Assembly (NCBI GenBank): GCA_943841885.1
Contig: CALSZZ010000001.1
Span: 265,156-329,155, forward strand
Origin: Candidatus Thalassarchaeaceae archaeon
Lineage (GTDB): Archaea; Thermoplasmatota; Poseidoniia; Poseidoniales; Thalassarchaeaceae
Direction: 5' to 3'
Length of the DNA: 64,000 bases
The notes under the pieces are model-generated. The model did no database searches and was not told the DNA's origin. It saw nothing but the letters and a program-made list of their open reading frames with translations. Of the stretch, positions 36,748 through 41,982 are shown one piece after another; the stretch's first letter is position 1, and every line of letters starts with the position of its first letter. The position numbers and the translations under genes were made by a program.

Positions 36748-37719
36748 ATGGTAGAAGCATTCGCGCCCGGTAAATGCATACTTTTTGGAGAACATGCAGT
36801 AGTATATGGCCATCCAGCAGTTGCCCTCGCCATTGACCAAGGAGTACGCGTTTCATTAAAAAAATCTGAAGAATGGCGGATTGGAGGGGAAAAATTTGAT
36901 CCGTTCAAACACCCACATATTTCTCATATTTTACATAAAATATTTTATTATAATGGAGAGCCACTGGATATAAAGATAGAAAGTCAACTATTCCCCGCGG
37001 CTGGATTGGGATCCTCAGCGGCCTTGTCTAACGCCATAGGTGCTGCTTTACATAAGATGATGAAACCTAACGAAAAATTAGATATTGTTAAATTGGCTAA
37101 AATAGGACATTCTGCAGAGGCAGCTGCACAAGAGGGTCGTGCTAGTCCAACTGATACTGCAACAAGTGCACTTGGAGGTTGTGTAGTAGTATCTGGAGAG
37201 CCCGTAAAAGGTACTGAGCATATTTTTAATACTGAATTAGTTACTCCTGAAGGAAAACGTTCTTGGTCAATTTATAAATCAATATTGCCTGAAAAGACAG
37301 ATGGAATATGGTTGATATTAGGATTTACTGGAGAGAGCTCCCCTACAGGAAAAATGGTTGCAGGAGTTGCAAATTTATTATCCCAAGTACCTAGTAAAAA
37401 AGATGAAATGGAGGCAATTAATGAAATTACTCTCAAAGGACTTGATGCTTTATCAAAAGGTAATTTTGAAGCCGTGGGATTGGCAATGGATGAATGCCAT
37501 GAACATCTTCAGAATCTAAATGTCAGCAGCGATTCTTTGGACAGGTTAGTTGAAGCCGTTAGGCCATACTCATTGGGTGCGAAAATGACAGGTGCAGGAG
37601 GAGGAGGATGTATTGTTGCAATATCGAGAAATCCTCAAAGAGTATCTGAACAGATAGAAATTGCAGGAGGGATACCTATGATTTCAAAAATAGGAACTAA
37701 GGGTGTAAAAATAATTTAA
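36748..37719 (+). CDS. mvk: mevalonate kinase
   Basis: APGKCILFGEHAVVYG, GHMP motif PAAGLGSSAA, KMTGAGGGGC. Confidence 0.8.
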   Translation: MVEAFAPGKCILFGEHAVVYGHPAVALAIDQGVRVSLKKSEEWRIGGEKFDPFKHPHISHILHKIFYYNGEPLDIKIESQLFPAAGLGSSAALSNAIGAALHKMMKPNEKLDIVKLAKIGHSAEAAAQEGRASPTDTATSALGGCVVVSGEPVKGTEHIFNTELVTPEGKRSWSIYKSILPEKTDGIWLILGFTGESSPTGKMVAGVANLLSQVPSKKDEMEAINEITLKGLDALSKGNFEAVGLAMDECHEHLQNLNVSSDSLDRLVEAVRPYSLGAKMTGAGGGGCIVAISRNPQRVSEQIEIAGGIPMISKIGTKGVKII

Positions 37720-37770: not shown

Positions 37771-37781
37771 ATCATTTATAA
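37771..37781 (+). promoter_or_regulatory. candidate TATA box for a leaderless tbp transcript
   Basis: ATCATTTATAA is centred about 25 nt upstream of ATG 37804, the spacing expected for archaeal TATA-to-TSS with a leaderless mRNA. Confidence 0.3.
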
Positions 37782-37803
37782 GTGATATTATGTGGGGCAA
37801 GAT

Positions 37804-38526
37804 ATGCTTAGTGATGAAGAACGCTTAACTGTTGTAAATGTAGTAGCATCTACAAGAGTCGCAGAAGAACTAGATTTGCCAGATATTGCCATACAATTGA
37901 ATTGTGAATATGAACCAGAACAATTTCCAGGGGTAGTTTATCGCGTCGTAGATCCGAAACTTGCAATACTTATGTTTCGATCAGGAAGAGCAGTTTGTAC
38001 TGGAGGTAAAAATGAAGATAATATCCATACCGGAATTAAACGTATGACTGAGGATTTAAAGGCTGCAGGAATCGATACATGGGATCTTAAAGATGTTGAA
38101 ATAGAAGTTCAAAATATGGTTGCTACATACTCCCTATATTTTCCAGAGGATTACGATCAAATAGCAGAGAGAGATGATATTAATTGTAAACTAATAGTAA
38201 ATGAAGACGGGACTCTTAGAGCAGCAACAGACCAAGAAATAAAGGATGATGATCCAAGAATAAGAGGAGTTAAAGAAGGCGAGTTATTAGCGGGTTTACC
38301 CAGAAAATTAAATTTGAATAATCTGACATTTCATCTACCTTTTGATAAAGTTGAATATGAACCAGAGCAATTTCCAGGTTTAATTTACAGATTAGATTAT
38401 CCAAAAGTAGTATGTCTAATATTTGGCAGTGGAAAAATGGTAATTACAGGTGCTCGTCACAAGGATGAAATCTTAGAAGCAGTACAATTTATTCAAGATG
38501 AATTAGCAGATTTACTCTATCAGTAG
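37804..38526 (+). CDS. tbp: TATA-box binding protein with a ~55-aa insertion in repeat 2
   Basis: Two TBP repeats (VVNVVAS...EYEPEQFPGVVYRV...FRSGRAVCTG and VQNMVAT...EYEPEQFPGLIYRL...FGSGKMVITG). The track ORF starts at GTG 37792. Confidence 0.9.
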   Translation: MLSDEERLTVVNVVASTRVAEELDLPDIAIQLNCEYEPEQFPGVVYRVVDPKLAILMFRSGRAVCTGGKNEDNIHTGIKRMTEDLKAAGIDTWDLKDVEIEVQNMVATYSLYFPEDYDQIAERDDINCKLIVNEDGTLRAATDQEIKDDDPRIRGVKEGELLAGLPRKLNLNNLTFHLPFDKVEYEPEQFPGLIYRLDYPKVVCLIFGSGKMVITGARHKDEILEAVQFIQDELADLLYQ

Positions 38527-38565
38527 AAAACCAACTTTTATCCATAATGGCCATTGCATAGGGCT

Positions 38566-41500
38566 ATGAGAAAAGTCGGAGGTAAAGTAATTTTACTTAC
38601 TTTGCTAATTTTATCATCGATATTATTGACCATTGTGAGTTCAGAAAATAAAAATTTAGCATATAACTTGCAATACACAAACGAGGTTAGTTCGCAAACG
38701 GGAATAGTAGACGTACAAAGTTGGCAAATTAATGATAATTGGATGTATGAAGGTTATCTTGATGTTGGGAATTTCATAACATCATCAGGAGTTTCCACTG
38801 ATATCGAGTATCTATCTGGGACACTGGAAAAAACAGTTACTGAAATATACATATCGGAAATTGATAATCACTCTTCGATTACATACAAACTAGAATCAAT
38901 CGGGAATTATGGGGCAAATAATGTTAATTTGGATGGTCAGAATGGCGATATTACTGTTGATATGCTAACAACAGAGATTATTCGTGCTTCTGACATGGCT
39001 GTAGTTTCACAGTCTGCAATTGTGGAAATAGTCTTTTGTTACTATGTCTTTTTTTGGTGCATAGATATTGATGTTGCAGAATTAAATGTAACAAATTCTT
39101 ACTCTCCTGCCTTAGAAGGATTAGATTTTCCATTAAGTGTTGGTGAAACTTGGAGTGTAAATTACCATCAAGAAACAGAATACAGTGGAGAGAGCAATCT
39201 TGGTGTAGATATCCCTGATGATACAAATGATGAAAACTCGACAAGCTGGTCGGTTGTTTCTCAAGGTTATTCTGGAGTAAGTTATACTGGATGTTCTCAA
39301 TCATATAACATTACCACATACAATAGTGATGGAGAGGTAAGCGGATACAGATGGTATTGCCCTGCCATAAAAGGAGACATTAAATCATCGTTTACAGAGA
39401 GCATAGGATTCAATGCCGTACATGAATTAACTACTTATCAACCAAGTACCAGAGCGAACGTGATCGAAATAGATATCCAATACCCACTTTCCCCTTTAGA
39501 TACTGAAATATTCGCTTGGATAAATGTTACTAATCAAGGATCTCCTATTGCTAATCAGACAATGGATTTTAGATATGAAATTGAAGATGAAATTCGACAG
39601 ATAATCACTGATGAAAATGGAACTTGTTATTTGGAATTCAGCACTGGAAACTCAACAGATGATTCGATATCAAATAGTGATTTTGCAAGCCATGGCATAA
39701 TTTCATGGATTAGTAATCAGAACGTAATAGGAGTTTCTTCACTAAGTATGGATTTAGATGTCCACGAGGTAGATTTAGTAACTAGAAATGAAGGAGTGAC
39801 AGTAGAAAGGACACGCGATAATAATACAATAACTTTAGATTCCAGTATAGGATTTAATGCAATATCAGGAGATTATTTAGTTTTCTCAGTACCAGTTCTT
39901 AACAGAGGTTTGATTAATTCTCCACCCACTGAATTAAGAGTTGATTCACCAGATGGGAATACTGCTTTTACTTATGTCCCCTCACTGAGTAGTCTTGAAG
40001 AATCTAGAGTAGAAATTAACTGGACAGTTCCAGAAAATCAAATTTTTGGTTCTACTCATCTTGAATTCTTAGTAGATCCAGATGAAAATATTTCTGAAGA
40101 TGGTAATAAGTCGAATAACCAAGGTTTATTTTCAGTATATATCGGAGCTTTGCCAACGGCAGTATTATCTCTACCGAATATGATTAATACTTTAGAAGAG
40201 GTTGTAATAAGTGGCCTTTCATCTGTAGACCATGATGGTGGAGATTATGTTTGTGAGTTCGATATAGAAACTACAGGAGGTGGTTTGGATACTATTTTAG
40301 AAGATGACTGTGAATTGGAATGGACATGGGGTGATGATGGTAATTTTAGCATATATTTGACTATTATAGATGAAGAAAGTGATCAATCTTCAACAGTAGC
40401 ATCTATCATTGTGCTCAATAGACCTCCTGAAATCGTACTTGTGGCAAATTATGATACCATTCCAGTCCTTTCGGAAGTGACGTTTGAAATCACCGAAAGA
40501 AATGACCCAGATACTCAGACGCCAAACTCTCCTGTTGATATTCTTTGGAATAATACATCCTGTAAAGAAGGTCAGATAGGGGTTAAGTGTACGGTAACTG
40601 CTGTTGCAGAAGGAGGCTTTTCGATTGGTGTATCGGCTACCGATGATGATGGTGAAACAGTATATGAAACATATACCGTTGAAGTCACTAATATAGCCCC
40701 CTATAATGGTCAAATAGAGGTTTATACAGGAGCACAAAAAATTACTCCAGATAATAGAGGCGTATTTACTGCAGATGAGGGAGAAAAATTGACCATACGC
40801 GCGTGGGCAAGTGATTCCATTAATGATATCGATAGCCTACAGTTTTCATGGTCTCCGGATGCTGAAAATAATCCAGAAATTATTCATCAAAAACAAGGAA
40901 GTGAGAGTTTCATAAATCATACCTATAATTACAGTGGCCTTCAATTGGCAACTCTACAGATAGTTGATGATGATGGTGCACCATTAATTTTCGATAATGG
41001 AGAAGAAATTTTAATTATTCCGATTGAAATAATAAATCTTAATCCATCAATAGTATCCCTAAATCAGAGGCTGCCAGTAGAAGAAGGAGAGGAGTTACTT
41101 TTCAATATTGGAGTTTCGGATACCGATAATGATATTTCAGATTTATACTCATGTTTTGATATTAATCCATTACTAGATTCTGATTCATCAGGTCTGGCTA
41201 ATGATGATTGTGATTACAATAGTAATTACTTGGCTTACACATGGGATGATGTAAGTATAGCTCCAGAATATATAATATTCCATGTGTCCGATGATGATGG
41301 TGCTTCAGCGAGTATAGAAATAGAAATAGATGTTAGGAATGTTAGGCCTGCTGCAGTAGCAAGTATAGATGAAATAAATCCAGTTCAAGGAGATATTATT
41401 TCATTGAGTGCTAATGGGACAGTGGATTCAGAGTATGATATTGAAAATATGATTTATCATTGGGATACGGATGTCTCAGTAGACTCTGATAATGACGGAG

Positions 41501-41982
41501 ATCCATCAAATGATGTTGATATCCAGGGAAGATGGGTACAAGTTATTTATGACACAGAAGGTAAGAAAAATGTTAAACTGACCGTTTATGATGAGTCGGA
41601 AAGTAATTCTGTATATATGGTGGTTAATGTGGCTAAGTCTCCATTTGACTTTACAACAAGTATTAAGCAAAATTCAGCGTCTATCTTGCTAATTATACTG
41701 ATTGCTCTAGCAGGGACAATATTAACACTAAGGAATAAAGAAAATAAAGAATCAGATGCTAGAGAGGAAGAATCCGCGGTATCAATTGACCAGATATTTG
41801 ATAATTTAGATGATGAGATAGAAAAAAATAAAAGAAAATTGAAAAGGAAAATTGAAGAAGAAAATAAAGAAATAATTTCTGAATCTTTGAGTGTAATAAA
41901 TTTAGAAGAATCGGAGAAAGATAAAATGACCATAAATGAGGTCCTAAGTGAAGAAGACATCGAAGCACTCTTTGAGGAGTAG
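38566..41982 (+). CDS. large cell-surface protein with CARDB and multiple PKD-like domains, C-terminal TM anchor
   Basis: N-terminal signal/TM. CARDB-like segment (VLNRGL...VDPDENISEDGNKSNN). At least 5 PKD-like repeats (e.g. GFSIGVSATDDDGETVYETYTVEVTNIAP). TM ILLIILIALAGTILTL followed by a charged tail. Confidence 0.75.
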   Translation: MRKVGGKVILLTLLILSSILLTIVSSENKNLAYNLQYTNEVSSQTGIVDVQSWQINDNWMYEGYLDVGNFITSSGVSTDIEYLSGTLEKTVTEIYISEIDNHSSITYKLESIGNYGANNVNLDGQNGDITVDMLTTEIIRASDMAVVSQSAIVEIVFCYYVFFWCIDIDVAELNVTNSYSPALEGLDFPLSVGETWSVNYHQETEYSGESNLGVDIPDDTNDENSTSWSVVSQGYSGVSYTGCSQSYNITTYNSDGEVSGYRWYCPAIKGDIKSSFTESIGFNAVHELTTYQPSTRANVIEIDIQYPLSPLDTEIFAWINVTNQGSPIANQTMDFRYEIEDEIRQIITDENGTCYLEFSTGNSTDDSISNSDFASHGIISWISNQNVIGVSSLSMDLDVHEVDLVTRNEGVTVERTRDNNTITLDSSIGFNAISGDYLVFSVPVLNRGLINSPPTELRVDSPDGNTAFTYVPSLSSLEESRVEINWTVPENQIFGSTHLEFLVDPDENISEDGNKSNNQGLFSVYIGALPTAVLSLPNMINTLEEVVISGLSSVDHDGGDYVCEFDIETTGGGLDTILEDDCELEWTWGDDGNFSIYLTIIDEESDQSSTVASIIVLNRPPEIVLVANYDTIPVLSEVTFEITERNDPDTQTPNSPVDILWNNTSCKEGQIGVKCTVTAVAEGGFSIGVSATDDDGETVYETYTVEVTNIAPYNGQIEVYTGAQKITPDNRGVFTADEGEKLTIRAWASDSINDIDSLQFSWSPDAENNPEIIHQKQGSESFINHTYNYSGLQLATLQIVDDDGAPLIFDNGEEILIIPIEIINLNPSIVSLNQRLPVEEGEELLFNIGVSDTDNDISDLYSCFDINPLLDSDSSGLANDDCDYNSNYLAYTWDDVSIAPEYIIFHVSDDDGASASIEIEIDVRNVRPAAVASIDEINPVQGDIISLSANGTVDSEYDIENMIYHWDTDVSVDSDNDGDPSNDVDIQGRWVQVIYDTEGKKNVKLTVYDESESNSVYMVVNVAKSPFDFTTSIKQNSASILLIILIALAGTILTLRNKENKESDAREEESAVSIDQIFDNLDDEIEKNKRKLKRKIEEENKEIISESLSVINLEESEKDKMTINEVLSEEDIEALFEE

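Follow-up and report, generated by a model that had tools for sequence, protein, structure and literature searches.

A two-layer insertion, specific to Poseidoniales, in the second repeat of an archaeal TATA-binding protein

The TATA-binding protein (TBP) described here is, on good support, the single general TBP of an MGIIb-N1 archaeon (Thalassarchaeaceae, Poseidoniales), and it carries an order-specific insertion in two layers between strand S1' and helix H1' of its second repeat. Its gene lies in a 64,000-nucleotide stretch of DNA (contig CALSZZ010000001.1, positions 265,156 to 329,155), which was analysed as a whole and is called the window below. The first layer of the insertion is a 22-residue stalk rich in proline and aromatic residues and the second is a 34-residue acidic head that is apparently folded, judging from structure prediction; this division is likewise well supported. 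The explanation towards which we lean, with somewhat more confidence than doubt, is that the sole TBP of this archaeon bears an order-specific two-layer insert in which the head provides an accessory protein-docking or steric surface.

The tbp gene, its core and its TFB partner

The tbp gene occupies positions 37804-38526 on the forward strand and encodes 240 residues from an ATG that is shared by its homologues; the assignment draws on the open reading frame and on Pfam, PDB and Foldseek comparisons. An in-frame GTG at 37792 opens a 244-residue frame (37792-38526, forward strand), and these two starts account for the length of 240-244 residues given in an earlier, sequence-only reading of this DNA. 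Homologue N-termini, which begin MLSDEERL or MTTDEERL, coincide with the ATG at 37804. The motif TTTATAA at 37775-37781 (forward strand), read directly from the sequence, is the likely TATA box of tbp. Because 22 nt separate its end from the ATG, tbp mRNA fits a leaderless transcript; the rule used for this reading is the spacing expected between TATA box and start in archaea. Mevalonate kinase is encoded immediately upstream of tbp at 34 of 34 Poseidoniales loci examined (36748-37719 in the window). Downstream, positions 38554-41982 encode a 1142-residue protein that is secreted or exposed at the surface; it has an acidic tail and a membrane anchor at its C-terminus.

PF00352, the Pfam TBP family, is found twice in the protein (E 3.9e-53; 177.7 bits, cut-off 22.9), and matches to TBPs in the PDB reach E values down to 6e-45. 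The protein thus has the two tandem PF00352 repeats and the saddle fold (S1-H1-S2-S3-S4-S5-H2, twice) by which TBPs are recognized. Repeat 1, the N-terminal lobe, spans approximately residues 8-90 (37825-38073, forward strand; residues 12-90 of the 244-residue numbering for the Pfam stretch). Both Pfam and AF2 agree with the earlier description of it as canonical, and it is insert-free, with AF2 strands at 8-18, 44-48, 53-57 and 62-68 and helices at 25-32 and 71-87. Repeat 2 begins with strand S1' (residues 100-111, IEVQNMVATYSL; 38101-38136, forward strand), which AF2 models as a strand at 100-110 and which aligns to S1' of the M. jannaschii structure 2z8u. The remainder of repeat 2 (38305-38523, forward strand), delimited by AF2 and alignment, comprises H1' (LNLNNLTFHL), the EYEPEQFPG loop, S2'-S5' and H2'. 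In the EYEPEQFPG loop lie the kinking F190 and two residues that contact TFB, E186 and E188. Across a 142-sequence alignment, the kinking residues F41 and F190 do not vary, conservation of F58 and F207 is at least 90%, and the window protein has all four; E186 and E188 in VEYEPEQFPG (positions C.L3.2 and C.L3.4) are nearly invariant. In TFB/TFIIB, a conserved Arg and a conserved Thr are contacted by the glutamates at these two C-lobe positions of TBP (PMC7221094). Since neither the kinking phenylalanines nor the TFB-binding glutamates are altered, the saddle would be expected to bind TATA and TFB in the ordinary way.

The genome to which the window belongs is 80% complete and has one canonical TBP gene, and the count is also one in nearly all of approximately 105 Poseidoniales genomes (E <= 1e-10). 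As the only canonical TBP gene product, the insert-bearing TBP must serve as the general factor. The presence of this sole canonical TBP together with a canonical TFB1 suggests that it recognises the TATA box and brings in TFB and RNA polymerase. The sequence-only reading had asked whether another canonical TBP paralogue exists; none was found in this genome, only a very divergent TBP-fold protein. This intact, two-lobed protein of 175 residues (G000:C2, L068:1498-2025, reverse strand) scores only 19 bits against PF00352, has no EQFPG motifs and is not a canonical TBP; proteins of its type, of about 175-190 residues, are kept in many MGIIa and MGIIb genomes. TFB1 of the same genome is canonical, with 308 residues (G000:C4, L149:1474-2400, reverse strand; relatives at L172-L221), and its identity across the order is 89-99%. 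Most Poseidoniales genomes encode a further TFB paralogue with about 40% identity to TFB1 (e.g., G021:C38:24018-24893 and G030:C36:13077-13934); no such paralogue was found in the 80% complete genome of the window.

Position, constraint and distribution of the insertion

Positions 38137-38304 of the window (168 nt) encode 56 extra residues, YFPEDYDQIAERDDINCKLIVNEDGTLRAATDQEIKDDDPRIRGVKEGELLAGLPR, which are residues 112-167 in the 240-residue numbering and lie between S1' and H1' of TBP repeat 2. An insertion of about 55 residues in the second repeat had been read at these coordinates from the sequence alone; the exact number is 56, and both coordinates and flanks proved right. The flanks are VQNMVATYSL (S1') on one side and KLNLNNLTFHLPFDKVEYEPEQFPG (H1' and the next loop) on the other. 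In alignment with M. jannaschii TBP (2z8u), residues 9-125 of the window protein pair with chain residues 10-125 and the match resumes at 182 with chain residue 126, so that the 2z8u chain is unbroken where the window TBP has approximately 56 additional residues. The insert is acidic, as had been claimed, with 15 D/E and 8 K/R residues and a net charge of -7. Its base composition is close to that of the remainder of tbp (GC 0.369 versus 0.344; GC3 0.196 versus 0.174), and a search for repeats and foreign composition around it returned nothing of note.

The term stalk is used here for the shared 12 + 10 residues and head for the residues nested between the two stalk arms, which number 34 in the window protein. 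The N-terminal arm of the stalk (residues 112-123, YFPEDYDQIAER; 38137-38172, forward strand) and its C-terminal arm (residues 158-167, EGELLAGLPR; 38275-38304, forward strand) are defined by comparison of the forms of 22, 28, 30, 55-56, 61-64 and 72 residues. The head (residues 124-157, DDINCKLIVNEDGTLRAATDQEIKDDDPRIRGVK; 38173-38274, forward strand) is delimited by AF2 and conservation and is missing from the 22-residue forms. Thirteen insert residues are invariant across the forms of 55-64 residues: E115 and Y117 in the N-terminal arm, G159, L162, A163, P166 and R167 in the C-terminal arm, and D125, R139, T142, E145, D150 and R152 in the head, the last six being kept over about 10 genera. 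In the same forms, the insert varies at the hairpin tip and in the loop that follows the helix.

In a search of 5.8 billion proteins, the window TBP was matched at 82-99% identity by more than 100 clusters, whose proteins have 237-283 residues. These insert-bearing homologues come from NCBI, JGI, ENA, Tara and Logan assemblies, some clusters occur on up to 152 contigs, and their source annotation is TBP of Thalassarchaeum or Poseidoniales; the insert is present at 80 GTDB species loci. Codon-level comparison gives a dN/dS of approximately 0.025 for the insert and 0.006 for the core (113 pairs with unsaturated synonymous sites), figures that are estimates rather than tests because the pairs are non-independent. 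At these values, the insert is best read as translated and constrained. Misassembly, an intein or an RNA intron would make the extra residues an artefact or a removable element, and the chance of this is negligible: more than 100 independent assemblies hold the insert, it is in frame and under purifying selection at the codon level, its composition is native, and AF2 folds it within the protein. Inteins are recognized by their splicing blocks, by a Cys or Ser at the N-terminal junction and by His-Asn followed by Cys, Ser or Thr at the C-terminal one. The boundary residues of an intein are absent here. The insert starts Tyr-Phe-Pro and ends Pro-Arg, which is followed by Lys, it has no Pfam match, and 56 residues are too few, so an intein was rejected. 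The number of independent assemblies and the low dN/dS also settle the earlier concern that the extra residues might be an assembly artefact.

The interval between S1' and H1' is 2-4 residues in 66 of 68 non-Poseidoniales TBP representatives and 22-72 residues in 74 Poseidoniales sequences (142-sequence alignment). The earlier statement that archaeal TBPs have few residues at this site is thereby borne out, and the insert is not general in archaeal TBPs. Canonical archaeal TBPs have about 180-190 residues and a 2-4-residue S1'-H1' turn, and the window TBP, with 56 residues there, falls outside this class by length. An insert of at least 22 residues is present in all Poseidoniales (MGII) TBPs examined, which form a single clade (SH-aLRT 99); it is found throughout the order and is absent from MGIII and other archaea. 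Many of these TBPs bear a head of 30-50 residues in addition to the stalk.

Insert length varies within the order (genus labels g1-g25 are working labels of this analysis). The 22-residue form (HYPEDYDGxDKFTGEPQAGVPR) is found in most MGIIa, in MGIIb genera g3, g7 and g8, and in part of g5. Part of MGIIa genus g17 has 28 residues and family f2 has 30. Forms of 55-56 residues occur in MGIIb g1, g4, g6, g9, g11, g12 (by repeat spacing only) and g13, those of 61-64 residues in g2, g10, one Guaymas MAG and part of g5, and the 72-residue form in part of MGIIa g17. All forms have stalk arms of the type [HYF][YF]PEDY... and ...GEP[LQ]AG.PR. The four long head types are very different, yet they have in common the pattern [DN]D.N..V[IY]...turn...[LIW]R..T[DE]EE, by which they look homologous; the heads of MGIIa g17 and MGIIb are recognisably so. 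Two genera are mixed: g5 has 22 residues in G016 and G150 and 64 in G117 and G134, and g17 has 28 in G030 and 72 in G151 and G114. Since relatives within one genus have the stalk alone, these comparisons indicate that the head is accessory rather than essential and dispensable on evolutionary time scales. Neither the tree of mevalonate kinase (MVK) plus TBP core nor that of the TBP core resolves the base of the order, and the trees agree equally well with a head that is ancestral and was lost several times, with several gains and with lateral exchange.

Two other parts of Poseidoniales TBPs also vary in length. In g5, TBPs with the 22-residue insert (L033:439-1239 in G016, and L213 in G150) have an N-terminal tail rich in Lys/Ser/Asp or Lys/Ala, e.g., with KAKSDKKDS repeats; this tail is absent from those with the 64-residue head (G117, G134). 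The inter-repeat linker is a second insertion hot spot, with inserts of 20 to about 355 residues: about 355 in G014 (genus g3; a 560-residue TBP at L032:710-2389, reverse strand), about 210 in P0121 (452 residues) and about 20 in family f2; L031:1480-2175 is among these loci. The linker inserts of G014 and P0121 share the motif GGVGAT...LVAG...NGIYVVT, and no Pfam match was found for the linker inserts.

Predicted fold and candidate roles of the head

AF2, run with the 142-sequence alignment, models the protein with a mean pLDDT of 91.9 and a pTM of 0.82, with no segment below 50 and with an insert pLDDT of 87-92. The head is predicted to be a beta-hairpin followed by a short helix and a strand, with strands at 125-132, 138-140 (after an NEDGT turn) and 154-156 and the helix at 143-147. 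A folded module is thus predicted where the sequence-only reading had an insert projecting from the C-terminal repeat. Helix H1' is placed at 171-175, so that on this model LNLNNLTFHL forms H1' and PEDYDQIAER does not. When the insert was modelled alone with its own 58-sequence alignment, the same elements were obtained with a pLDDT of only 63.8, and for this reason the topology of the head seems intrinsic and the confidence of its prediction dependent on the core.

Foldseek searches with the whole model return TBPs only, with 44 TBP chains at E <= 1e-11. The best match, 2z8u, has a TM-score of 0.92 by target length (rmsd 1.7 Å) and of about 0.67 by query length, the latter because the insert is unmatched; none of the solved TBPs among the Foldseek matches has anything at the insert position. 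The insert itself gave nothing below E 0.046 in Pfam (hmmscan, three insert variants), no matches at E <= 10 in a PDB sequence search (phmmer), and a best E of 1.7 in Foldseek with the isolated, low-confidence model (pLDDT 63.8).

A published description of TBP groups position L2.3 of the N-terminal lobe with exposed residues of H2, on the convex side and at a distance of about 30 Å from where TFIIB binds (PMC7221094). Given this description and the pseudo-two-fold symmetry of TBP, the insert, which is in C-lobe loop L2, probably lies beside H2', on the exposed upper or lateral face and off the concave DNA-binding face. Such a placement matters for the idea that the acidic head mimics DNA and sits on the concave face until it is displaced, in the manner of TAF1-TAND1 or the Mot1 latch. 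Acidic DNA mimics are known for eukaryotic TBP, and the acidity of the module would suit this role. Autoinhibition is nevertheless very improbable, as AF2 makes the insert rigid and confidently placed (pLDDT 87-92, pTM 0.82) with no flexible tether, the stalk arms are short, and the loop leaves beside H2' on the convex side (PMC7221094).

A head in contact with flanking DNA or with the core of TFB, where it would adjust the stability or orientation of the complex, has more to recommend it. The insert is in the TFB-binding lobe, 19-21 residues ahead of the TFB-contacting glutamates, and about 12 TFB1 changes (S93, D135, I140, A154, N179, E188, P213, K216, P222, D229, Q235 and A243) are fixed in the clade with inserts of 55-62 residues (g1, g2, g4, g6, g9, g12 and g13). 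Most of these fall at 178-243, near the TBP-binding Arg of CS(N/V)PRT and the inter-cyclin linker, a cluster around a conserved Arg that resembles co-evolution. At the same sites, MGIIa is identical to the short-form MGIIb genera, and the independent long-head lineages do not follow the pattern: TFB1 is fully short-type in the g5 genomes with 64-residue heads and short-type save for G178N in the g17 genomes with 72-residue heads. As these long-head genomes do not have the changes, the changes mark clade history rather than the head, and co-evolution of TFB1 with the head was rejected. TBPs with and without a head pair with the same TFB1, which speaks against a contact between head and TFB1 that is obligate; contact with invariant TFB1 residues remains compatible. 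A net charge of -7 is also unfavourable to DNA contact, and head-less forms work with the same TFB1. Direct tuning of the complex is therefore decidedly unlikely. The functional proposal of the sequence-only reading is upheld in one half: a lineage-specific surface agrees with an insert that is Poseidoniales-wide, absent from MGIII and folded in AF2. Its other half, modulation of TFB or DNA binding, finds little favour with an acidic module, unchanged glutamates and phenylalanines, a TFB1 without consistent co-variation and head-less forms that occur naturally in g5 and g17.

Docking on the C-terminal lobe is the most likely role of the head. A rigid acidic head would add an accessory protein-docking or steric surface to the TFB-side lobe, and this surface may serve a lineage-specific partner or regulator. 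Four points weigh against such a reading: purifying selection on the insert could come from folding constraints alone; the isolated insert is modelled by AF2 at a pLDDT of only 63.8; the head is strongly divergent among lineages, with four types; and its loss or gain within genera is also compatible with a weakly functional passenger. Taken further, the last point leads to an indel-prone surface loop that gained a folding sequence and keeps it only because its disruption would destabilise TBP, with no partner or regulatory role. We regard this as unlikely. It can call on the plasticity of the site (22, 28, 30, 55-56, 61-64 and 72 residues), on short and long forms within one genus, on the second hot spot in the inter-repeat linker that takes 20 to about 355 residues, on a head that has no relative by sequence or fold, and on a TFB1 that does not track the head. 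It has to contend with a dN/dS of 0.025, a very low value if this surface module had no function, with the persistence of D125, R139, T142, E145, D150 and R152 over about 10 genera, and with a stalk that is universal in the order.

A bolder reading, to which we give only a small chance, is that the head is a fast-diversifying and readily gained or lost interface, which either acts as a built-in regulatory cofactor in the assembly of the pre-initiation complex or has had its surface moulded by viral conflict. If so, the TBPs of virus-like contigs that keep the stalk (see below) would imply that the stalk is needed with the host machinery, and head presence or absence within genera would represent regulatory or immunity states.

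Significance and comparison with known systems

TBP is among the most conserved proteins of archaea and eukaryotes, and insertions into its core are not normally tolerated. MGII are the most abundant archaea of the surface ocean, and here an entire order, globally abundant and uncultured, relies solely on a TBP with a module inside the saddle that is folded according to AF2. The natural forms of 22, 28, 56, 64 and 72 residues offer a comparative system for how a basal factor gains accessory surfaces, the step from which TAFs and further TBP regulators arose in eukaryotes. As a molecular marker, the insert also separates MGII cleanly from MGIII. A literature search found no description of this TBP insert.

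Canonical archaeal TBPs (M. jannaschii 2Z8U; P. woesei 1PCZ/1AIS/1D3U; S. acidocaldarius 1MP9) resemble the window TBP in their two PF00352 repeats and saddle fold (Foldseek TM 0.83-0.92, target-length), the four kinking phenylalanines, the two TFB-binding glutamates, and the use of a single general factor with a canonical TFB, which has 308 residues in the genome of the window. They differ in having a 2-4-residue S1'-H1' turn and about 180-190 residues in total, whereas the window TBP has 56 residues at the turn and 240 in all. MGIII, the sister order in class Poseidoniia, are the closest cellular relatives, and both groups are marine planktonic Thermoplasmatota. MGIII have two TBP genes of canonical length (182-184 residues, in frames of 183-246 residues) that are insert-free, whereas MGII have a single gene that always carries the insert. 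MGIII repeats abut, e.g., G044:C11:148296-148541 and 148566-148814.

Two divergent 201-residue TBPs, P0129 (L151:722-1327) and P0152 (L167:3361-3966 and L168-L171), have a stalk-type insert of 21-22 residues at the same site (YPEEYEG...EPLAG and FPNDYEG...QAG). Unlike the window TBP, they have a stalk without a head, their cores are only 45-51% identical to it, and they branch beside the Poseidoniales clade. Their contigs are short and marine, with packed one-strand ORFans that overlap by 4 nt, one with an adjoining ATP-dependent DNA ligase (phrog_114); by gene content they look like an MGII virus or mobile element with a captured host TBP. No relatives of P0129 and P0152 were found in IMG/VR, and a profile scan for viral TBPs returned canonical-length ones only.

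The elaborations of eukaryotic TBP, such as the N-terminal extensions of TBP and TRF, TAF1-TAND1 and the Mot1 latch, are likewise lineage-specific or acidic additions that give regulatory surfaces to a frozen core. The likeness is a functional analogy only, and no homology of the insert to them was detected. They are tails at the termini or proteins of their own, disordered for the most part, whereas the MGII insert lies inside a core loop and, in the AF2 model, is folded. The insert-bearing TBP is a novel form of a known protein and not a new kind of system.
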